Shown here: positions 1,021 to 14,027 of the stretch, in pieces
Layout of the letters: every line of letters starts with the position of its first letter
Position numbering within the stretch: position 1 is the first letter of the stretch
Made by a program: the position numbers and the translations under genes
From: Paenibacillus xylanexedens
Lineage (GTDB): Bacteria > Bacillota > Bacilli > Paenibacillales > Paenibacillaceae
Length of the DNA: 24,000 nt
Direction of reading: 5' to 3'
NCBI RefSeq assembly: GCF_017874615.1
Contig: NZ_JAGIKV010000015.1
Location: 63,890 to 87,889 of the forward strand
The notes under the pieces: model-generated
What the model was told of the DNA's origin: nothing
The model's input: the letters and a program-made list of their open reading frames with translations, nothing else
Databases searched by the model: none

Positions 1021-1217
1021 CTAAGGAACACAGGGCGTCTTATTTAGCCTTTTGGTCCTCTTTTTAAATTGTAAGGAACATCAGACACGTTATTTTCCGA
1101 AATTAGCTGGTTAAAACGCTGTAAACTGCTGTTTATTCTCATATAGCGTGTGTCAGGTTCCTTAGATTTCTACTGGAGCTTCAGCTCCTTAAATAAGACG
1201 CCTCAGATTCGTTAGCG
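1021..1217. repeat. Nested inverted-repeat element (family C; MITE-like or long-hairpin element)
   Basis: There are four copies of a ~26-nt motif arranged as two direct then two inverted. They are CTAAGGAACACAGGGCGTCTTATTTAG (1021), GTAAGGAACATCAGACACGTTATTT (1070), rc-oriented ATAGCGTGTGTCAGGTTCCTTAG (1143-1165) and TTAAATAAGACGCCTCAGATTCGTTAG (1189-1215). Outer pairs with outer and inner with inner. A GGAGC-TTCA-GCTCC hairpin lies at 1175-1188. Confidence 0.7.
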
Positions 1218-2613: not shown

Positions 2614-2690
2614 ACTTTTTCTGACTGAACTAACTTTCTGTTTGAGCCATACGTAACAAGTCATATTTCATTTAAAACAAGCACTCAGCC

Positions 2691-3738: not shown

Positions 3739-3823
3739 TAGTCAATGTCCATACCCAACGTATACCTTTTTCCGGCGGACACGACAATTCTCAATAATCG
3801 TTTGACTCACCTATTTTCCTTTT

Positions 3824-5593
3824 CTAGCCCAAATCCGGTGTATCCACGAACGTTACCGCCAGATCATCCGTCTGATGAAGCTGGAATACGATGATTTCAT
3901 TCTCACCTTCATGAAGGAGCGGAGCAGGTACATACAGTGTTTTTTGCGGTCCTTTATTCCAGTAGCGACCCAGATTGAATCCGTTTACAAAAACAACCCC
4001 CTTGGTCCAGTTATCCAGTCGCAGAAAAGTATCTCTTACATCCGTGATATTAAACTCTCCTCGATAAAATGCTGGTCCCTGTACTTCATTAATTGCTTCG
4101 CTAATCACATTACTAAATTGCAAACCCGACAGATCAGTTAATGGCAGACAATGAATCGTCCAATCATATAAAAATTGAAAGCCATGTCGCACACCCTCGG
4201 TGATGCCCTTCGGATCTCTCAGGTACGGACCATAGTTGATTCGCCCCATATTTTCAACAAGGATCAATAGATCTGCGCCCTCAGGCGGCACTGCAAAGGA
4301 AACCGATAATGCCGTATTCCCCCGTTCCAGCACGCCCTGAAATTGCCCATCAACAAACACAAGCGCACGGTCACGAACCTCCTGAACCACCAGTTCCTGT
4401 CGCTCCCTGGGTCCGGATATTCGGGTCTGATAACAAATAAATCCATAATCCTGACCCAGCTTCTCCATCGTTTCCGGATTCGTACGCTGCACCGGGGCTG
4501 ATATCCGGTCCAACTGCGCCAGTAATGGCGCCTGCTGGTTCAACTCCACTCGCCCATAGCCCATAGTCCCCTTCGATTCTGGCAGCACAAGCTCACCCAG
4601 ATTTACCTCGCTATACCGAGCAATAAGATCACGTACGGTATGGAATTTCGCTGTCGGCTCCCCAGATTCACTGAGCAGTGAATCGTAGTCGTAACTTGTA
4701 ATTGTGGGTTCGTATTGATCCTTCTGTTGACAGTTCGCCCCGTTGTAAAATGCAAAGTTTGTTCCACCGTGGAACATATAAAAGTTAACCGAAGCTCCTG
4801 CTCGAAGCATCTCTTCAAACACACCAGCCACATCTGCGGCTTCCCGGGTATGATGCGACTCACCCCAGTGGTCGAACCAGCCGTTCCAATACTCCATGCA
4901 CATCAAAGGTTCATCCGCCTGATATTCACGCAGCTTGGCGAACGCTCCCTCCGTACCTGATCCAAAATTGACCGTAGCCAGATGCCCCGGCACCGATCCC
5001 GCTTGCAGCATGTGGTCTGTCGGTCCGTCCGAGGTAAATAACAACACATCCATACCGCGTTCTACCATGCCATCACGTAAATATTGCAGGTAACTCGCGT
5101 CGTTCCCGAAGCTGCCGTACTCATTTTCAATTTGTATTGCAATGATCGGTCCGCCATGGGTACTAAGAAGGGGTTTTAATTTGGGCAAAAGCACATCATA
5201 ATAACGATCCACATTCGCCAGAAATTTTGCATCATTACACCGCAGACGAATTTCATCATCGGCAAGCAGCCAGGCAGGTAATCCGCCAAACTCCCACTCG
5301 GCACATATATAAGGACTTGGGCGAACAATCACATGCAGACCCACATCTCCCGCAATGCGAATAAAACGTTCCAGATCAGCCATGCCTTCAAAACAATACT
5401 GCCCCGGCTGCGGCTCATGAACATTCCATGGCACATACGTCTCCACCGTATTGAAACCGCAGGCTTTCAGCTTAAGTAACCGATCCTCCCAATAGTCGGG
5501 GACCACTCTGAAATAATGGATGGCACCCGACAAAATCCGAATGGGCTCACCATCATACATAAATTGTGAACCTTTATACGTCAGCACCGCCAT
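3824..5593 (-). CDS. beta-galactosidase, GH35 family
   Basis: 589-aa ORF with the GH35 hallmarks GAIHYFRV, FNTVETYVPWNVHEP and QIENEYGS (acid/base Glu). A GGGGAGGG RBS is embedded in the end of the upstream gene. The start is 1 nt from the GH29 stop. Confidence 0.95.
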   Translation of the reverse strand: MAVLTYKGSQFMYDGEPIRILSGAIHYFRVVPDYWEDRLLKLKACGFNTVETYVPWNVHEPQPGQYCFEGMADLERFIRIAGDVGLHVIVRPSPYICAEWEFGGLPAWLLADDEIRLRCNDAKFLANVDRYYDVLLPKLKPLLSTHGGPIIAIQIENEYGSFGNDASYLQYLRDGMVERGMDVLLFTSDGPTDHMLQAGSVPGHLATVNFGSGTEGAFAKLREYQADEPLMCMEYWNGWFDHWGESHHTREAADVAGVFEEMLRAGASVNFYMFHGGTNFAFYNGANCQQKDQYEPTITSYDYDSLLSESGEPTAKFHTVRDLIARYSEVNLGELVLPESKGTMGYGRVELNQQAPLLAQLDRISAPVQRTNPETMEKLGQDYGFICYQTRISGPRERQELVVQEVRDRALVFVDGQFQGVLERGNTALSVSFAVPPEGADLLILVENMGRINYGPYLRDPKGITEGVRHGFQFLYDWTIHCLPLTDLSGLQFSNVISEAINEVQGPAFYRGEFNITDVRDTFLRLDNWTKGVVFVNGFNLGRYWNKGPQKTLYVPAPLLHEGENEIIVFQLHQTDDLAVTFVDTPDLG

Positions 5594-5594
5594 T

Positions 5595-7055
5595 TTACAA
5601 CCCTCCCCGCTCGCTCAGATATATGCCTAACCCGGACAACGTAGGGTACCATCTGGATTCATGAATGCTTAATCGCATCTTTCTCGATGTGACCTGTGGG
5701 AAACAGCAAATTCGCTTATACCCCACCACCGTCCCCGTGTAAAACGTTTCCCAACCACCATCTGCCCTCTGCGACTCCAGTGTAAAACGCTCAATCCGTT
5801 GGCCTGTCTGGATATATTCCATCAGCACCACCCGGTCAAATGATCTTTCTTCCTGCAAATCCAGCTCAATCCAAGCCTGCTCTGTTCCTTCGTGAGGACA
5901 CCAATACGTATCCCGGCGTTCCGTCAGCACTTCCGATACGGCATGTTGTTCATCCATCGTCTCCGATGCTTTTACCAGCGCCTGCGAGGCGAAATTTTCC
6001 TGAAAAATGGTACGCAGCGAATCTCCCAATTCCTTTAGTCGCTCGACATCCCGTTCGTGAATGAGACCACGCGTATCCGGTGGCAGATTGAGTAAAAAGG
6101 TGGCGTTGCCCCCCACTGCGCCATGATAGACGGCGAGCAGTTCTTCCAGTGTTTTGACCTCATCATCTTCACTGGCATGATAGAACCATCCTGGGCGAAT
6201 CGAGGTATTCACCTCGGCAGGGTACCAGATCAGTGGCTCACCTTGGGAACGAATGACCTCTCGGCTTCCCAAATCACTGTCCTGCGTATTGATCCTTGTG
6301 GCAAACTCACCATCATCCACCTGTTGCGATTGCTCCTGAATCTTCTCATTATCCTGCATATGCGCTGGCACAACGCTCCATTCCGATTCCCGCGTATGCC
6401 CCGCCTCATTGCCGCACCAGCGAACATCCGGGCCACATACCGAGATAACAGCTTCGGGCTGGAGCTCACGAATAAGCGCATAATATGCGTCCCAGTCATA
6501 GACCTGCCTTTTGCCATTCGGACCCTCACCACATGCACCATCGAACCATACACAGAAGATGTCGCCATAATTCGTAAGCAGCTCGCGCAACTGATGGAGG
6601 AAAAACTTGTTATACCTCTCGGAATCTCCATAAGTGGCTTCATGCCGATCCCAAGGAGACAGGTACACGCCAAACTTCAATCCACCCTCACGGCAGGCAT
6701 CGGCGACTTCCTGAACCAAATCCCCCGTACCATTCCTCCACGGACTAGCCGCGACCGTATGCGCTGTAAACTGACTGGGCCACAAACAAAATCCATCATG
6801 ATGCTTACATGTCAGAATCAGCCCCTTCATCCCCGCAGCCTTGCACGCCTGCACCCATTGCGTTGCGTTCAGTTCAGAAGGATTGAAAATCGCCGGGTCT
6901 TCCTCCCCAGTGCCCCATTCCTGATCCGTAAATGTATTTACCGTAAAATGAATAAACGCGTAGAACTCCATCTCCTGCCATCTCAGCTGGCGTTCGGATG
7001 GGCTGACCTGTGCTGCGGACTTAATCCATTCGGCTGGTTGCAGTTCATCATTCAT
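5595..7055 (-). CDS. alpha-L-fucosidase, GH29 (subfamily-B-like) with C-terminal F5/8 type C (discoidin)-like domain
   Basis: 486-aa ORF with the motifs EFYAFIHFTVNTFTDQEWGTG, LTCKHHDGFCLWPS and YLSPWDR. The C-terminal ~130 aa resembles a galactose-binding-like domain. AAAGGAGTG RBS. Confidence 0.92.
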   Translation of the reverse strand: MNDELQPAEWIKSAAQVSPSERQLRWQEMEFYAFIHFTVNTFTDQEWGTGEEDPAIFNPSELNATQWVQACKAAGMKGLILTCKHHDGFCLWPSQFTAHTVAASPWRNGTGDLVQEVADACREGGLKFGVYLSPWDRHEATYGDSERYNKFFLHQLRELLTNYGDIFCVWFDGACGEGPNGKRQVYDWDAYYALIRELQPEAVISVCGPDVRWCGNEAGHTRESEWSVVPAHMQDNEKIQEQSQQVDDGEFATRINTQDSDLGSREVIRSQGEPLIWYPAEVNTSIRPGWFYHASEDDEVKTLEELLAVYHGAVGGNATFLLNLPPDTRGLIHERDVERLKELGDSLRTIFQENFASQALVKASETMDEQHAVSEVLTERRDTYWCPHEGTEQAWIELDLQEERSFDRVVLMEYIQTGQRIERFTLESQRADGGWETFYTGTVVGYKRICCFPQVTSRKMRLSIHESRWYPTLSGLGIYLSERGGL

Positions 7056-8682: not shown

Positions 8683-11466
8683 CTACACCTGTTTGAATTC
8701 GATCCAGTCAATCTGGAGACCTGGTTTGGTGAAGTCCAGTTTCAATTCATACAGTCCTGCTTCAAGATCTACTTTGACAAGTTTCTGTCTGATCCATTTG
8801 CCTTCTGTACCATTCGTTTGGATGGTGGTCACCAACTGATCATTCAGGAGCAGGTTACATGCACTTTGAGCCAGTTCCGGCTCAGGGGACATGATCTGTA
8901 CGATAATCCGGTAATGGCCGGCCTGATCCACTTTCATATAGACGGGTTCAGCTACCGCAGGTTTCACCTGTGCGTTCTCAACCAGATCCTGAGCTTGTGC
9001 AGCAGATAGGGATGCATTCGCTTGGAACGAAGCGACGTTCTCCACGATCTCGTGTTTTCTGCCGGACACTGGTGCATTCATGATGAACTTGCAGATGTTA
9101 ATCGCGGAACGTTGCAGTTCTCCGCGCGTAAGTGTTCCATTTTCCAAGGATTCAATCGTGTTGTCGTCCCAGCCATTGATCTCTGCGCCGTAGTTCGGTA
9201 CAACCATGTAGAGATCATTCTGCGCACGAATCATCCAGTTGGTGTATTTGCGATCAGCCTCGCCACCTTCGGTCACATCATTCATAATCGCCCACCAGTC
9301 GGTCATTACGATTCCGTCGAAATTCCATTCGCCACGCAAAATCGTGGTGTTCAGGTCGTAGTTGGATGCCGCCCAGTGTCCGTTAACCGGGTTGTAAGAA
9401 GTCATGATGGAGTTGGCTCCGCCTTCTTTTACAGCGATTTCGAACCCTTTCAGGTAAATTTCACGCAGTGCACGTTCGGAGACAACAGCATCTACTTTAC
9501 TGCGGTGCTTCTCCTGGTTGTTGCAGGCAAAGTGTTTCAGTGTGGCATTGGAACCACCCTTCATGATACCTTTCGTACATGCTGCGGCAAATACACCCGA
9601 GATCAGTGGATCTTCAGAGAAGTACTCAAAGTTCCGGCCATTGAGCGGGCTCCGGCGGATATTGAGTCCAGGTCCGAGCAGGGTATCCACCTGATTTCTC
9701 AGCAATTCCTGTCCTTCCATCACATACAACTCTTCAACAAGATCCTTGTTCCATGTCGCCGCAAGCAACGTACCAATGGATACCTGTGTTGCTTTCTCGC
9801 CACTATCCATACGAATACCGGACGGGCCATCTGCCGTACATGCTACCGGAATACCGTAGTTAAACAGGCTGTCGCTGACACCACCAAATGCAGATGCCGT
9901 TCCCGAAGTAACGAGCGGACTGCTCATGCCTTCACCACGGACAATCGCCGCCAGATCCTGATCACTCAGTTGAGCGATGAAGGTTTCCAGACTCACTTTG
10001 CCAGCCTTAACGTCACTCAGCTTGTAGCCCTGATTACCCGTCTGCTCCAGCGTTTGCGGGAGATTCTGCTCAATCCGGTTCGCCATGGATATCTTACGTT
10101 TCGGTACTTCTGCATAAGTCAGTTCATAAGATCCATCTTCCTTGCGCGAACCTGGTTTCATCCGTGTAAAATCTTCAGTTGGGGCCATCGCTTCTTGCAG
10201 TTGCTCCACTAATTGAAGGGATTCAATCACATATCCATCCTGGCCATCAATGCTGATATGCTCCACTTGTTTCACACTGGTTCCTACATGCAGTCGGTAT
10301 GTGCCTTCTTCCAGAACATATGCGGAAGCATGACCTGTAACACCGGCATCATCGTAAGATGCCATGGCATGAATCGGGAAGCTGATCGTCAGAATTTCTG
10401 ACTCACCCGGCTGCAACAATCCTGTTTTACCAAAAGCCACCAACGCCTTCGCCGGTTGTCCCAGTTTGCCTTGTGGTGCTTCATAATAAACTTGCACAAC
10501 CTCTTTGCCCGCATATGTTGTACCTGAGTTGGTCACATTTACACGAACTTCGATGTAGGTTTCGCCGTCTTTGGACACTGATTTTGCTTCTTCGTGTTGA
10601 GCCAAAAACGTCGTATAAGACAGGCCGTAACCGAATTCAAACTGAACGCGCTCAGGTCGAAACGTTTCGAAATAACGATAACCTACATAGATATCTTCCT
10701 GATACAGGTTCTTGAACTCATTGCCGTAGTTGCTTGTCGAAGGGTAATCTTCAATGGAATAAGCAATCGTATCTGTCAGTTTACCGCTTGGTGTAACGTC
10801 CCCCGCCAGCACATCGGCAATCGCATTACCACCCTCCATACCGCCATGCCAGGAGTAAATTACACCTTGGATTGGATGTAGATACGTTTCGTTTAACCAG
10901 CTCATGTCGATGATATTTGAGACATTCAACACAACGATTGTGTGTTCAAATTGCGAAGTAACTTGCTTCAACATCGCTTTCTCATCTTCTGTCAGTTGGT
11001 AACTTCCTGGCGCATCCGCATTATCCTGGTCTTCTCCTGCTGTACGTCCAATCACGATAATGGCTTTGCTGGATTTGCTTCTGGCCTGTGCAACCAGTTC
11101 ATCCGTCAAAGGCATTTCTTTCTGATTCCATGGCTCGGCCGCCCATACTTTTCCGCCATCATCAAATGGATTTTCTTCAATCCACTTCTCATAGACAGCT
11201 GCCAGTTCTTCATTCACCGTTATATTCTTTTTGCTTCGCAGACCATCCAATAGATTCGTTGTGTAGGCCACATGTACACTACCGCCTGAACCCGTGCCGC
11301 TCCGATAATAATTGACTTGAATCCGTCCAAAAACTGAAACGTTTTCGTTTTCACGAAGTGGAAGCACTTGGCCTTCATTTCTGAGTAAAACGGCTCCTTC
11401 AGCGGCAACCGTACGACTAAACTCTGCAAACCCTTCCAATGGAACTCCGATTTGATGTGTGCTCAA
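8683..11466 (-). CDS. GH3 family beta-glucosidase/beta-xylosidase-like enzyme with permuted domain order and a C-terminal CBM-like domain
   Basis: 927 aa with a TTG start (rc of 11464-11466) 6 nt after GGAGGG. The N-terminal half carries GH3 C-domain motifs (AVLLRNEGQVLPL, IVIGRTAGEDQD, GYGLSYTTF) and an Fn3-like segment. The catalytic (beta/alpha)8 motifs come second (GPGLNIRRSPLNGRNFEYFSEDP, KHFACNNQE, VMTDW). The tail ends ...LQIDWIEFKQV. Confidence 0.92.
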   Translation of the reverse strand: MSTHQIGVPLEGFAEFSRTVAAEGAVLLRNEGQVLPLRENENVSVFGRIQVNYYRSGTGSGGSVHVAYTTNLLDGLRSKKNITVNEELAAVYEKWIEENPFDDGGKVWAAEPWNQKEMPLTDELVAQARSKSSKAIIVIGRTAGEDQDNADAPGSYQLTEDEKAMLKQVTSQFEHTIVVLNVSNIIDMSWLNETYLHPIQGVIYSWHGGMEGGNAIADVLAGDVTPSGKLTDTIAYSIEDYPSTSNYGNEFKNLYQEDIYVGYRYFETFRPERVQFEFGYGLSYTTFLAQHEEAKSVSKDGETYIEVRVNVTNSGTTYAGKEVVQVYYEAPQGKLGQPAKALVAFGKTGLLQPGESEILTISFPIHAMASYDDAGVTGHASAYVLEEGTYRLHVGTSVKQVEHISIDGQDGYVIESLQLVEQLQEAMAPTEDFTRMKPGSRKEDGSYELTYAEVPKRKISMANRIEQNLPQTLEQTGNQGYKLSDVKAGKVSLETFIAQLSDQDLAAIVRGEGMSSPLVTSGTASAFGGVSDSLFNYGIPVACTADGPSGIRMDSGEKATQVSIGTLLAATWNKDLVEELYVMEGQELLRNQVDTLLGPGLNIRRSPLNGRNFEYFSEDPLISGVFAAACTKGIMKGGSNATLKHFACNNQEKHRSKVDAVVSERALREIYLKGFEIAVKEGGANSIMTSYNPVNGHWAASNYDLNTTILRGEWNFDGIVMTDWWAIMNDVTEGGEADRKYTNWMIRAQNDLYMVVPNYGAEINGWDDNTIESLENGTLTRGELQRSAINICKFIMNAPVSGRKHEIVENVASFQANASLSAAQAQDLVENAQVKPAVAEPVYMKVDQAGHYRIIVQIMSPEPELAQSACNLLLNDQLVTTIQTNGTEGKWIRQKLVKVDLEAGLYELKLDFTKPGLQIDWIEFKQV

Positions 11467-11801
11467 TGATTTCCCTCCTGATTGTCATCCCCATATCTAC
11501 GAATCGCTATATATAAAATGAACTAACCAAGCGCACACTCATTTTATAAAAAGAGATTCTATGATCTGGTAGATTCACTTGTACATAGTCTCATATTAAC
11601 AGATTCTATAGAAGAAATTAAATTAGATTTGTGCTTTTGAGAAGAAATTACCCTAACGTCAAAAGTTGCAGACACAATTACGCCGTTCCACGATGTAAGA
11701 ACACGCTCATTCAATCAATTATTCGTTAAGAATACAATGATTCAAGGATAATATTTAGGGAATTATTTCCGATAAACGTATGGATAATATCTCTCATTTT
11801 G

Positions 11802-11829
11802 TTGAACTAAAAGGCTTTTGTGGTATACT
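11802..11829 (+). promoter_or_regulatory. sigmaA-type promoter with extended -10
   Basis: TTGAAC (11802-11807), a 16-nt spacer whose last three bases are TGG (extended -10 TGn), then TATACT (11824-11829). It lies just upstream of the tandem repeat units. Confidence 0.6.
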
Positions 11830-11842
11830 AGTGATATCAACA

Positions 11843-12060
11843 AATTTGGAGCGTACTGTGCTCACCAGGGTTGCAACCCTTGGTTCCACTCCGCAGTGGA
11901 CTTTAAATAAGATGCGGAATAGAGTAATTAGTTGCATAACACACGGTAATACGGAATATACTATATTTGGACCCTTAGGGTCACTGGGGAAGGCGACCCC
12001 TAGTTCCACTCCGCGGTGGACTTTAAATAAGACGCGGAACAGAGCTTTTAGTCGCCACCA
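11843..12060 (+). ncRNA. Two tandem ~120-nt structured repeat units (candidate non-coding RNA; possible RNA antitoxin or cis-regulatory leader)
   Basis: The conserved cores are 11862-11935 and 11981-12055, with TTCCAC at 11884 and 12004 (period 120). Each core has hairpin P1 (CCAGGG..CCCTTGG versus CTGGGG..CCCCTAG) and hairpin P2 (TCCAC-TCCGCR-GTGGA). Each P2 loop is complementary to a downstream hexamer (TCCGCA/TGCGGA and TCCGCG/CGCGGA). Substitutions between the units are compensatory. Confidence 0.6.
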
Positions 12061-12074
12061 TATTATAATTGTGA

Positions 12075-12107
12075 AGGCGCTGGTTCTATCTACCTAGCGT
12101 CTTTTTT
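12075..12107 (+). terminator. Modest intrinsic terminator between the repeat RNA and the downstream CDS
   Basis: AGGCGCTGG - 10-nt loop - CTAGCGTCT forms 9 bp including two G-U pairs, followed by a T6 run (12102-12107). Confidence 0.5.
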
Positions 12108-12139
12108 AGTTTGTAAATAGAAACTGTGAGGGAACCTAT

Positions 12140-12817
12140 ATGCTCGAAAGGATATCACATGTCCACGACTTAAACTCACTAGATGTAAAACCAAGAATAG
12201 ATCAGATTAACCTAAAATTGCTCCTCGACTACTACATAAGCTATCTATTACCATATCGATTTACATACCACTTGGGAGACGGCTCCGTACTTCACTTAGA
12301 TTTTAACAAAGAAAACTTTTGTCATCTTGTAGGCTTACAAAGTATTGTCAATAAAACTTTGAAGGAACGCGCAGCTTCAAAATATAAGGGCATGCCAGGT
12401 TTCAATGGTGTTATGAACGGTATAATTACGTTTGAAGATTTAAAAAAGAAAAACAAGGGTGGATTCAATAGTGTAAAAAGTAAATTAGTTAATTTCCATC
12501 TCATTCCCAAGCTACTTATGTCTTCAACACAAGTCGTTTACTACACTCAACCTGTTAATAGTATTAATTGTGCCCTATTAATATTTGATGTGTATCACAA
12601 TGCTTACATCCATCTTGGAATAGATAAAATAGTGGAAGGAACATATGTAGCAAGAACGTTTCTTATCGAACCGATAACACAAAAAAATTCGGGCACTACG
12701 TTCATTGATGGTCAAAAAGGACCCATACCCATTGTTAAGACCTTAAAAATGTTAAGACCCGATACACAAGTAGCCTCTACTGCTATCAACATCTCTGAAT
12801 CATCAGATAACTATTAA
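12140..12817 (+). CDS. hypothetical 225-aa protein; tentative BECR-fold (PBECR4-like) nuclease or toxin candidate
   Basis: GAGGGA RBS (12128-12133) lies 6 nt before the ATG. The ORF is AT-rich. Motifs include DFNKENFCHLVGL and NAYIHLGI. No signal peptide or TM segment is apparent. The family assignment comes from memory of an F-x-HL-x-G motif in PBECR-type proteins and is unverified. Confidence 0.75.
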   Translation: MLERISHVHDLNSLDVKPRIDQINLKLLLDYYISYLLPYRFTYHLGDGSVLHLDFNKENFCHLVGLQSIVNKTLKERAASKYKGMPGFNGVMNGIITFEDLKKKNKGGFNSVKSKLVNFHLIPKLLMSSTQVVYYTQPVNSINCALLIFDVYHNAYIHLGIDKIVEGTYVARTFLIEPITQKNSGTTFIDGQKGPIPIVKTLKMLRPDTQVASTAINISESSDNY

Positions 12818-12847
12818 TGGTGTCTCATCTGGAATCGATTTCAGGTA

Positions 12848-12904
12848 CAAACTAAATAACCGTTCTCCGGTATACTACTGGAAAACGGTTATTTAGTTTG
12901 TTTT
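12848..12904 (+). terminator. Strong intrinsic terminator (long hairpin plus T-run)
   Basis: CAAACTAAATAACCGTT (12848-12864) is perfectly complementary to AACGGTTATTTAGTTTG (12884-12900). The stem extends inward, and TTTT follows at 12901-12904. Confidence 0.8.
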
Positions 12905-12938
12905 GCTACCTAGAAGGCTATAGAATTCCTTTGATATA

Positions 12939-14027
12939 TTAAGTCGTAAGTTTCGCATACACCAGGAAGAATAACATGTCTTCGCCCATGATGACATAAC
13001 CCGGAACCCGGTAGACCAGATCAACAAGGACAAATGCCACCAGTAATCCCACCATGACTGCCAGATGACGTGGCCGGAGTCGTAGATGTGCGTGTCTATA
13101 ACGATGGAACACAAGTGAGGTCGACAAGAAATACAGTAGCGCTGATCCAAATACAAATCCTATCATGAACACATAGTTTAACTGATTCTGATATAACAGC
13201 TGAATGGACGCAGCGATCATACTCATAGAGATGTAGATGAACAGATGGCCGTATATGATCGCTTGCCCGGCAGTCTGAATCTCTTTGCTGACCTTTTTCT
13301 CCACGTTGTCGAAGTATTGCCACCATATCGCAATGACAAAGATGGATGTAAAGGCGGCAAACAGAATGGATTTCATATCCCAATGATCGGCTTGCAGCAC
13401 CGCAATAATGCTTACCACCGATTCACCCAACAGGATGAGTGTAAAGAGCGCGAAACGTTCCAACAAGTGATGGGTCTGAACCGGTACCTTCACCAGATTT
13501 TTGCGTCCGATCAGCGGAAGCACAATGTCCACAGCAATCCCCGCATACAAAATCACGTAGCGTAACCAGGAATCGAAGAACAATGAACCTGATGAGATCA
13601 ATATGCCAATAAGGAAACAGATACCCAAGTAACGAGCCGCTTGCTGCTGATGCTCGCCTTTTGACTTGTGAGCCGTCAGATACTGAATCGCCGTAAATGC
13701 CCGTGAGCCGATATATCCAATGAAGAAGGACAAGTAGTATTGGTCAAAATGGGTAGAGAGGCTTGCCGTCATGACCATAACGGACAGAAGCTGAAGGATG
13801 AGGAATATTCGATGGATCAGGATATCTTGACCATAGCGGTTAATAAACAAGGTCTGACCGACCCATGCCCACCAAACAGGGATAAAAATAAGCACAAACT
13901 TCATTAAATATTCAAACGTAATTACTCCATGTTCGGCATGTAACAAGACATGACCCGCTTTGGAGACCGCTGCTACAAAGAGCAGATCGTAAAACAGCTC
14001 CAGCCAGGTAACCTTTTTCTCCATCAT
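12939..14027 (-). CDS. ltrA: low temperature requirement protein A (LtrA) family membrane protein
   Basis: 362-aa polytopic hydrophobic ORF. The N-terminal VTWLELFYDLLFVAAV matches the LtrA signature (W/LELFFDLVFV). AAAGGAG RBS at 9-nt spacing. Confidence 0.85.
   Translation of the reverse strand: MMEKKVTWLELFYDLLFVAAVSKAGHVLLHAEHGVITFEYLMKFVLIFIPVWWAWVGQTLFINRYGQDILIHRIFLILQLLSVMVMTASLSTHFDQYYLSFFIGYIGSRAFTAIQYLTAHKSKGEHQQQAARYLGICFLIGILISSGSLFFDSWLRYVILYAGIAVDIVLPLIGRKNLVKVPVQTHHLLERFALFTLILLGESVVSIIAVLQADHWDMKSILFAAFTSIFVIAIWWQYFDNVEKKVSKEIQTAGQAIIYGHLFIYISMSMIAASIQLLYQNQLNYVFMIGFVFGSALLYFLSTSLVFHRYRHAHLRLRPRHLAVMVGLLVAFVLVDLVYRVPGYVIMGEDMLFFLVYAKLTT

Follow-up and report, generated by a model that had tools for sequence, protein, structure and literature searches.

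A PBECR4-family gene preceded by a double-pseudoknot RNA in Paenibacillus xylanexedens, a candidate type III-like toxin-antitoxin locus

We analyzed a 24,000-nucleotide (nt) stretch of the Paenibacillus xylanexedens genome (contig NZ_JAGIKV010000015.1, positions 63,890 to 87,889 of the forward strand; hereafter, the window), in which an open reading frame (ORF) at 12140-12817 encodes a protein of the PBECR4 family, a predicted endoribonuclease (endoRNase). Upstream of the ORF, on the same strand, lie two copies of an RNA unit, each of which can fold as two nested H-type pseudoknots, followed by a terminator-like hairpin. Comparison with related loci establishes this order of the parts, the fold of the RNA, and the linkage of RNA, terminator and gene on mobile elements. 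On the basis of these sequences, we propose that the locus may be a toxin-antitoxin module of a type III-like kind, in which both the toxin family and the RNA would be new, serving as a selfish or defence element. We give this reading about an even chance.

The RNA ahead of the PBECR4 gene

The original prediction, made from the sequence alone, placed a possible nuclease directly behind a structured repeat RNA, and this position was its most informative part. The repeats are real. Two 63-nt direct repeats (11873-11935 and 11993-12055) are spaced 120 nt apart and are 84% identical, and each belongs to a unit of ~75 nt (Table 1). In unit 1, stem P1 pairs 11864-11870 with 11878-11884 (ACCAGGG/CCUUGGU), and the P1 loop (11872-11877, UGCAAC) pairs with 11931-11936 (GUUGCA) to form pseudoknot PK1. 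Stem P2 pairs 11885-11889 with 11896-11900, and its loop (11891-11895, CCGCA) pairs with 11913-11917 (UGCGG) to form PK2; a conserved A-rich linker (CUUUAAAUAAGA, 11901-11912) lies between P2 and the 3' strand of PK2. Unit 2 has the same fold, with ACUGGGG/CCCUAGU in P1, GGCGAC (11992-11997) with GUCGCC (12051-12056) in PK1, and CCGCG (12011-12015) with CGCGG (12033-12037) in PK2. The two units thus differ by compensatory changes in P1, PK1 and PK2. Further, in the minimum free energy (MFE) fold of unit 2 alone (-25.7 kcal/mol, z = -2.3), PK1 and PK2 appeared as nested helices. The small hairpin P0 that precedes unit 1 has an equivalent of different sequence ahead of unit 2 (11969-11982, GACCC-UUA-GGGUC), and such hairpins also precede the units of loci L018, L019, L028 and L030.

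Table 1. Features of the PBECR4 locus (positions in the window)
Feature	Position	Strand	Description and basis
Promoter-like site	11802-11829	+	-35 TTGAAC, 16-nt spacer ending TG, -10 TATACT; consensus match only
P0 hairpin before unit 1	11848-11863	+	GGAGC-GUACUGU-GCUC; MFE fold
RNA unit 1, double pseudoknot	11864-11936	+	Direct repeat, hand segmentation, covariation, model R1
RNA unit 2, same fold	11983-12056	+	Repeat, hand segmentation, covariation, model R1
Intrinsic-terminator-like hairpin with U6	12073-12108	+	GAAGGCGCUGGU / ACC-U-AGCGUCUU; hairpin 12073-12104, U-run end 12108
Shine-Dalgarno sequence	12128-12132	+	GAGGG, 7 nt ahead of the ATG; read from the sequence
PBECR4-family protein gene	12140-12817	+	225 amino acids (aa), ATG start; predicted metal-independent endoRNase
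Hairpin with near-perfect 26-nt arms	12847-12901		Inverted repeat I2, 92% complementary; between the convergent PBECR4 and ltrA-like genes

The promoter-like site scored 9 of 12 consensus matches plus the TG extension in a consensus scan and is conserved in L001-L004. Judging from the sequence, it is the only plausible promoter for both the RNA and the ORF. At other loci, strong -35/-10 pairs were read by eye 20-40 nt upstream of the RNA. The hairpin between the RNA and the ORF folds at -14.9 kcal/mol (z = -3.9), and 0 of 200 shuffled sequences were as stable; a simple terminator scan missed it, and folding revealed it. Because only 31 nt separate its T-run from the ATG, there is no room for a separate promoter of the ORF. 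An AU-rich linker of ~17-40 nt joins the last RNA helix to the terminator, and no obvious anti-terminator was found when the sequences were read. Constitutive attenuation therefore fits the arrangement better than a riboswitch platform.

The terminator hairpins between RNA and ORF are unusually long, with 9-12 base pairs (L010, L018, L019, L021, L030-L036, L058 and others), and many of their stems share a CUCUGA...UCAGAG-like core across distant loci (CGCUGG...CUAGCG in the window). Since these cores are more alike than generic terminators need, the hairpin may itself belong to the functional RNA. The single-stranded stretch between the last helix and the terminator holds a semi-conserved AU-rich element (AUUUAAU, AAUUAAAU or CAUUAAUUU). 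It follows PK1 in most units, for example those of L011, L012, L017, L023 and L025-L027, and is a candidate processing or cleavage site.

Related loci were gathered starting from the protein, among genomes, homologue-encoding contigs, plasmids (16 records matched this PBECR4 subfamily, of which 11 were examined) and metagenomes. The sample included 5 Paenibacillus chromosomes, 11 plasmid records and ~18 metagenome contigs. At every sampled locus with enough upstream sequence, the RNA lay on the same strand and was followed by a hairpin with a T-run, a ribosome-binding site and the ORF. This order persisted down to 26-30% protein identity. The linkage extended across Paenibacillus, Bacillus, Brevibacillus, Halobacillus, Sporosarcina, Heyndrickxia, Oceanobacillus and Clostridium, and took in a MobV plasmid whose recorded host is Salmonella. 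Among these loci, L024 was the one partial exception, its PK1 being unclear. The loci carry one or two units, some with an extra hairpin between the 3' strands of PK2 and PK1. No protein-coding neighbour was conserved across the fetched genomes, contigs and plasmids, and hence there was no candidate for a protein antitoxin; nor was any ORF inside the RNA region conserved across loci. Recurrent neighbours were integrases, resolvases, ParA and restriction genes, and some loci lay in prophage moron regions. This PBECR4 subfamily had no match in 50,697 phage records, and related loci do occur in prophage-like contigs of IMG/VR. As far as these sequences indicate, the PBECR4-RNA loci are carried on mobile DNA, namely plasmids, prophages and, in the window, an AT-rich islet.

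To describe the fold across loci, 26 units from ~20 loci were segmented by hand and each was checked against its source (alignment A4, with N as gap filler). Standard pairs filled 99.5% of the cells, compared with 59.9% after column shuffling and 36-47% when the 3' partners were slid. Changes on both sides were found in 24 of 25 pairs (mean of 19.4 in shuffles), and the covariation score was 0.932 (0.226 when shuffled). All four helices covaried across the 26 units. Because A4 had been fitted by hand to the structure, three less biased checks were added. A shuffle test of the complementarity between loop and downstream sequence in 17 non-redundant units gave Fisher p = 2.5e-13 for PK1 and 1.3e-10 for PK2. 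When 24 other units, all of one subgroup, were aligned with MAFFT without fitting (A7), 97% of positions were paired, compared with 29-47% when slid, and both pseudoknots exhibited changes on both sides. A4 was unusable for a covariance model, because N counts as a residue, and the model (R1) was built from A7, with no sequence of the window's lineage included. R1 found both units of the window at full length on the + strand, unit 1 at 11862-11938 (30.6 bits, E = 1.7e-6) and unit 2 at 11981-12058 (20.7 bits, E = 1.3e-3), and nothing else in the window.

R1 missed the 'group B' units, which are more divergent and have a hairpin inserted (L011, L017, L019, L021-L023, L025-L027); only the hand alignment places them in the family. 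At L005, a second, more divergent unit (GGGGACACUAAACUACC; 3770-3850, + strand), resembling the group B units of plasmids, lies upstream of a clear one, and the two units of one locus can accordingly be of different subtypes. Two further approaches were set aside. When 17 mixed units were aligned with MAFFT (A5), the P1 helices of two subgroups fell out of register, and hand segmentation was used instead; a scan of upstream regions with a generic hairpin and pseudoknot descriptor returned the true units together with many spurious ones in AT-rich DNA and was not used as a statistic. Among close relatives, the readable substitutions fell at unpaired positions or were compensatory. Compared with P. 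vandeheii, the window showed an identity of 86.7% across the RNA and terminator, 81.0% across the ORF and 55.8% across the adjacent intergenic DNA.

The RNA matched no family of Rfam 15. No family overlapped it at E ≤ 10 (positions 11400-13000 of the window), and none reached the gathering score across the whole window. The same held at the gathering score for 14 related loci, save an unrelated Bacillus-plasmid RNA in L026, and no Rfam match overlapped the viral copies in L041 (9750-9777) and L044 (4660-4687). ARAGORN found neither a transfer RNA nor a transfer-messenger RNA in the repeats. A protein antitoxin encoded in the repeat region was also rejected: a 105-aa ORF at 11780-12097 (+) spans the promoter-like site and both RNA units, starts upstream of the -10 box and has a frame that is not conserved elsewhere, and it is almost certainly spurious. 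Such frames can mislead gene callers, as in L024, in which the PBECR4 coding sequence was extended across the RNA. A type I antisense arrangement does not apply either, as the RNA lies upstream of the ORF on the same strand without overlap.

The PBECR4 protein

The ORF at 12140-12817 is as originally predicted: it starts with ATG behind a good ribosome-binding site (Table 1), and its translation holds both motifs that had been quoted, LHLDFNKENFCHLVGLQSIV and HNAYIHLGIDKIVEG. The locus is also AT-rich, with a GC content of 0.36 compared with 0.45-0.51 in the flanks. The description of the product as an orphan was wrong. An exhaustive HMMER search of 1.84 billion representative proteins found 194 homologous clusters at E ≤ 1e-3, nearly all of them solo proteins of 180-250 aa and one a polyvalent protein of 4,369 aa. 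Close Paenibacillus relatives are 94-97% identical to the product, and many plasmid and metagenome relatives are 26-55% identical. Judged by this conservation across the Paenibacillus locus, plasmids and metagenomes, the ORF is more than a chance reading frame.

The assignment to PBECR4 that the original prediction had suggested was confirmed by profiles. PF18813 (PBECR4, for phage Barnase-EndoU-ColicinE5/D-RelE-like nuclease 4) was the only Pfam match (E = 5.9e-16; 59.8 bits, compared with a curated cut-off of 27), spanning residues 31-176 and profile positions 8-149 of 188. Several homologues, including close relatives, bear the NCBI name 'PBECR4 domain-containing protein', and homologues also carry PF18813; the assignment of the protein is thus already in the databases. 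The two histidines that had been singled out are conserved ones. In an alignment of 51 sequences (A2), H62 of the FCHLVG motif and F119 were invariant (H62, 51/51), and H158 of the HLG motif (46/51), Q192 (47/51), T/S173 (49/51) and G160 were nearly so. A second alignment of 30 sequences (A3) gave 30/30 for both H62 and T/S173. Family membership of the protein is established at the level of sequence.

Passages on PBECR domains in Iyer et al. (2017; PMC5512222) describe an active-site pattern of a histidine in an N-terminal helix together with a threonine or serine in the C-terminal part. This pattern is present in the AlphaFold2 model, with H62 in a predicted helix (57-64) and T173 in a strand (168-178). 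The model is a compact alpha/beta globule (mean predicted local distance difference test score 90, predicted template modelling score 0.85) with an N-terminal two-stranded element, the histidine-bearing helix, a helical insert (66-128) and a five-stranded sheet whose strands lie between 131 and 205; the last ~15 residues, at the C-terminus, are disordered. Endoribonuclease activity is a prediction.

Structure and profile comparisons beyond Pfam gave little. In the BECR fold, which resembles barnase, EndoU, colicin D/E5 and RelE, an N-terminal helix precedes a sheet of 4-5 strands. Foldseek found no match to the model in the PDB at E ≤ 1e-3; its weak matches included CdiA-CT toxins (7m5f_C, 6vek_A, 6cp8_A), a HigB-type protein (6af3_E) and BrnT (3u97). 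That several of these are ribonuclease (RNase) toxins of the BECR/RelE type is suggestive, and is not a test of the fold. In BFVD, two unnamed viral proteins matched at E ~1.5e-5, followed by weak matches to polyvalent or 'nuclease' proteins. A sequence-profile search of the PDB and scans of NCBIfam and PADLOC found no match to the protein, and in PHROGs one family, of unknown function, matched it.

A possible type III-like module and its alternatives

In the scheme that we infer from these sequences, a single promoter (~11802-11829) would drive an RNA of two ~75-nt double-pseudoknot units, and the strong terminator would halt most transcripts and leave the RNA in excess, with occasional read-through providing messenger RNA (mRNA) for the PBECR4 protein. 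The protein would be a metal-independent endoRNase with H62 and H158 as acid/base catalysts and T173 and Q192 assisting, and the RNA would bind it and hold it inactive, the precursor possibly being cut first by the protein in the AU-rich linkers. If the element were lost or transcription were shut off, for example during phage infection, the less stable RNA would decay, and the freed, toxic RNase would cleave cellular or phage RNA.

The arrangement agrees with the operational definition by which type III loci are found, set out by Blower et al. (2012) and restated in PMC12283969: a terminator just before the toxin gene, tandem repeats upstream of it and a single operonic promoter. In the window and in all related loci, a terminator of the rho-independent type lies immediately before the putative toxin gene. 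Tandem units at 120-nt spacing occupy the interval between the single promoter-like site and the terminator, and relatives have one or two units. Each unit contains two pseudoknots according to the covariation and shuffle tests, of which the main alignment was fitted by hand. The locus thus shares with ToxIN, CptIN and TenpIN the sequence of promoter, tandem RNA repeats, rho-independent terminator and endoRNase gene (the last here predicted), as well as pseudoknot units with A-rich linkers and carriage on plasmids and prophages; in TenpIN, too, the repeats may be imperfect or few (PMC12283969). It differs from all three in its putative toxin, which is of the unrelated PBECR4/BECR family, its ~75-nt core at 120-nt spacing, its double pseudoknot and its frequently single unit.

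By analogy, the closest functional precedent is AbiF with its RNA, RCd22, of Clostridioides difficile. The abiF motif was first known from comparative genomics only, and RCd22 was later shown to be an RNA antitoxin that neutralizes the Abi_2 toxin AbiF in cis and in trans (bioRxiv 10.1101/2025.04.15.648962). As in the present locus, a structured RNA lies just upstream of an RNase-like gene, often in two copies, and that of AbiF is on a prophage. In contrast, the HEPN-like Abi_2 fold and the RNA motif are both different, and the abiF motif has an Rfam entry, while no Rfam family matched the present RNA. On the side of the protein, the PBECR passages of Iyer, Burroughs, Anand, de Souza and Aravind (2017; PMC5512222) treat these domains as predicted BECR RNases of phage and plasmid conflicts, and as offensive effectors, injected by phages or contained in polyvalent proteins, that perhaps act against host mRNA or CRISPR RNA. 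The product of the ORF is a solo version of ~200 aa of the kind found on mobile elements. Unlike the present locus, the account given in those passages mentions no associated RNA or arrangement of the toxin-antitoxin kind.

Several points weigh against a type III-like module. The putative toxin is not ToxN/AbiQ, CptN or TenpN (PBECR4 was the only Pfam match, and PADLOC has no model matching the locus), and the locus therefore belongs to none of the three described type III families and would at most be a new one. Canonical type III antitoxin repeats measure tens of nucleotides; the present unit is much longer, and many loci have only one. Further, the fold match to solved BECR toxins was not significant, the main covariation alignment was fitted to the structure, and the searchable literature contains no assay of a PBECR4 protein for toxicity, RNase activity or RNA binding. 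These last gaps in the fold match and the literature also favour a different account, in which the PBECR4 protein is inert or a non-nuclease RNA binder and the module is non-toxic, with a role in RNA chaperoning or plasmid maintenance. Inactive PBECR versions that are probably only RNA-binding, such as that in Mu MuF, are described in passages of PMC5512222. The predicted catalytic residues are strictly conserved here, unlike in those inactive versions, and we consider an inert protein highly improbable.

A further point against the type III-like module came from a search that started with the RNA. The P2-linker-PK2 core, used as a DNA pattern against IMG/VR, was found in 74 viral contigs (L040-L113; for example, L046 near 6218-6245 (-), L041 at 9750-9777 (-) and L078 at 2657-2684 (+)); the pattern is narrow and the sample redundant, with many contigs from one metagenome. 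A PBECR4 ORF lay downstream in only 22 of the 74 loci, leaving 52 (~70%) without one. The RNA can therefore exist, and seems to be maintained, without the protein, and may have an independent function. A hidden Markov model (HMM) from A2 was too narrow and detected PBECR4 in 4 of the 74 loci; the divergent proteins were found with Pfam and jackhmmer. Some of the 52 loci could still contain a PBECR4 relative too divergent to be recognized, or a copy beyond the sequence that was fetched.

The viral copies fall into distinct settings. Two of the 22 loci with PBECR4 (L058 and L075) have the layout of the window, the ORF following immediately on the terminator. In the other 20 (V2a), a divergent PBECR4 (Pfam E = 9e-26) is encoded ~375 nt further on. 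These belong to a group of 31 loci (V2) in which the RNA, with its own terminator, directly follows a prophage endolysin gene (Amidase_2 and SH3), and in the remaining 11 of which (V2b) the PBECR4 gene is absent. Another 30 loci (V1) carry a complete double pseudoknot and terminator beside a serine recombinase gene, and no PBECR4 was detected in the fetched downstream sequence, which ranged from ~80 nt to ~10 kb per locus. With the PBECR4-linked RNA of L058, the orphan V1 RNA shares 84-92% identity, and orphan copies keep compensatory changes in PK1 (for example, GCAGCT/AGCTGC compared with ACAGCT/AGCTGT). In L046 and L088, a GC-rich, structured-looking stretch (GGGGCGGCGGGCU) without an Rfam match lies ~200-350 nt upstream of the orphan V1 motif (oriented coordinates), and the motif may belong to a longer RNA.

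In the V2a loci, the first RNA is followed by a new promoter, a different tandem repeat, a terminator and the PBECR4 ORF. In L044, the promoter is near 4710-4737, two 59-nt copies (4831-4889 and 4915-4973, + strand) are spaced 84 nt apart, and the terminator lies just before the ORF at ~5035. Each copy can be read as an H-type pseudoknot followed by a conserved AACGAAAAGAUAUUUUAACUGGAUAUCACG. That a sister PBECR4 subfamily is preceded by a different repeat RNA suggests that solo PBECR4 genes in general need an RNA encoded in cis.

These copies bear on two other explanations. The RNA may be an independent phage or plasmid RNA, such as a small RNA, an element for stability or processing, or a portion of some larger RNA, with PBECR4 as its processing enzyme or simply its neighbour. 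The 52 viral loci without a downstream PBECR4, the 30 V1 copies beside a recombinase gene, the endolysin-linked V2 copies including the 11 of V2b, and the GC-rich stretch that would make the V1 motif a domain of a longer RNA are all as this account would have them. However, when loci are collected by the protein, the linkage is essentially complete and the position fixed (same strand, terminator, ORF), and a distant PBECR4 subfamily has a different repeat RNA in the same place, which points to a general need for a cis-encoded RNA. Moreover, orphan antitoxins and phage decoys are well documented for toxin-antitoxin systems (PMC3475682). We therefore regard an independent RNA as unlikely.

Alternatively, the RNA may be a cis-acting leader (an attenuator, or an autoregulatory or riboswitch-like element) that sets the level of PBECR4 mRNA and neutralizes nothing in trans. 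It is strongly structured and conserved; the single transcription unit of RNA, terminator and ORF without an internal promoter is the standard layout of a Firmicutes attenuator; and leaders bound by the product of their own gene, such as ribosomal-protein leaders, show the same exclusive linkage. RCd22 also acts in cis on AbiF, so that this model and the antitoxin model overlap. Yet the last helix and the terminator neither overlap nor have an obvious alternative pairing, being separated by the AU-rich spacer; the copy number is one or two, with no terminator after the first unit; and the 52 viral loci retain the RNA with its own terminator and compensatory changes in the absence of PBECR4, where a pure cis regulator would decay. 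A leader acting in cis only is, in our estimation, improbable.

For a type III-like module, by contrast, the toxin-less viral copies have a precedent. Phage PhiTE carries pseudo-ToxI, an antitoxin-like RNA without a toxin that neutralizes ToxN, and genetic work showed it to act as a decoy (Blower et al., 2012; PMC3475682). The 52 viral loci resemble it in carrying the RNA without PBECR4, and by analogy they may be decoys; they may also represent an RNA with a separate function. If these elements are combined, PBECR4 proteins would be the toxins of a large, unrecognized class of RNA-antitoxin systems in Firmicutes plasmids and prophages, with modular pseudoknot antitoxins (the double-pseudoknot family and, for a sister subfamily, at least one further repeat RNA) and with the toxin-less copies of gut phages as decoys. 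We put forward this combined reading tentatively, as somewhat more likely to fail than to hold.

If it is correct, type III systems would gain a second toxin fold (BECR) and a new RNA architecture. If the phage copies are decoys, they would be a second case of RNA anti-defence mimicry after pseudo-ToxI, much more widespread than the first, and a natural arms race. Among the predicted RNases of phage and plasmid conflict systems, PBECR domains rank with the most common, and no paper in the retrievable literature explains how solo PBECR4 copies stay harmless to their carrier; a conserved, cis-encoded RNA partner would be a concrete and testable answer. The RNA family, its double-pseudoknot fold, its constant linkage to this PBECR4 subfamily and its stand-alone spread in phage contigs are absent from Rfam 15 and from the searchable literature. 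Whatever its function, the compact nested double pseudoknot, rich in covariation and abundant in gut-phage contigs, is a candidate for a new RNA family. As a tool, the two could provide an RNase with specificity for sequence or structure, along with an RNA inhibitor that is itself genetically encoded.

The islet in the window and minor observations

In the window, the ORF lies in an AT-rich islet of ~1.4 kb between a GH3 glycosidase gene and an LtrA-family gene, and is the sole + strand gene within a long run of - strand genes. The same islet is present at the same locus in four other Paenibacillus genomes, with protein identities of 75-97%. The hairpin downstream of the PBECR4 gene (Table 1), with a fold of -33.9 kcal/mol (z = -9.7), forms the right-hand border of the islet and probably terminates transcription in both directions. 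A 13-nt direct repeat (TTTTTTAGTTTGT / TTATTTAGTTTGT) is found at 12102-12114 and 12889-12901, in each case on the 3' side of a terminator flanking the ORF. Chance in AT-rich DNA could account for it, or it could be a trace of gene insertion.

Two minor observations concern related loci. The Salmonella Dublin plasmid pSD853_7.9 (L026; NC_015392.1), the MobV plasmid mentioned above, looks Firmicutes-like throughout despite its recorded host, and contains a Bacillus-plasmid RNA (RF01691, 59.5 bits) at 1121-1174 (-), ~100 nt upstream of the PBECR4 RNA. In one metagenomic lineage only, a 41-aa ORF was called right after the PBECR4 gene (L005, 4669-4794; L006, 766-891; both on the + strand).

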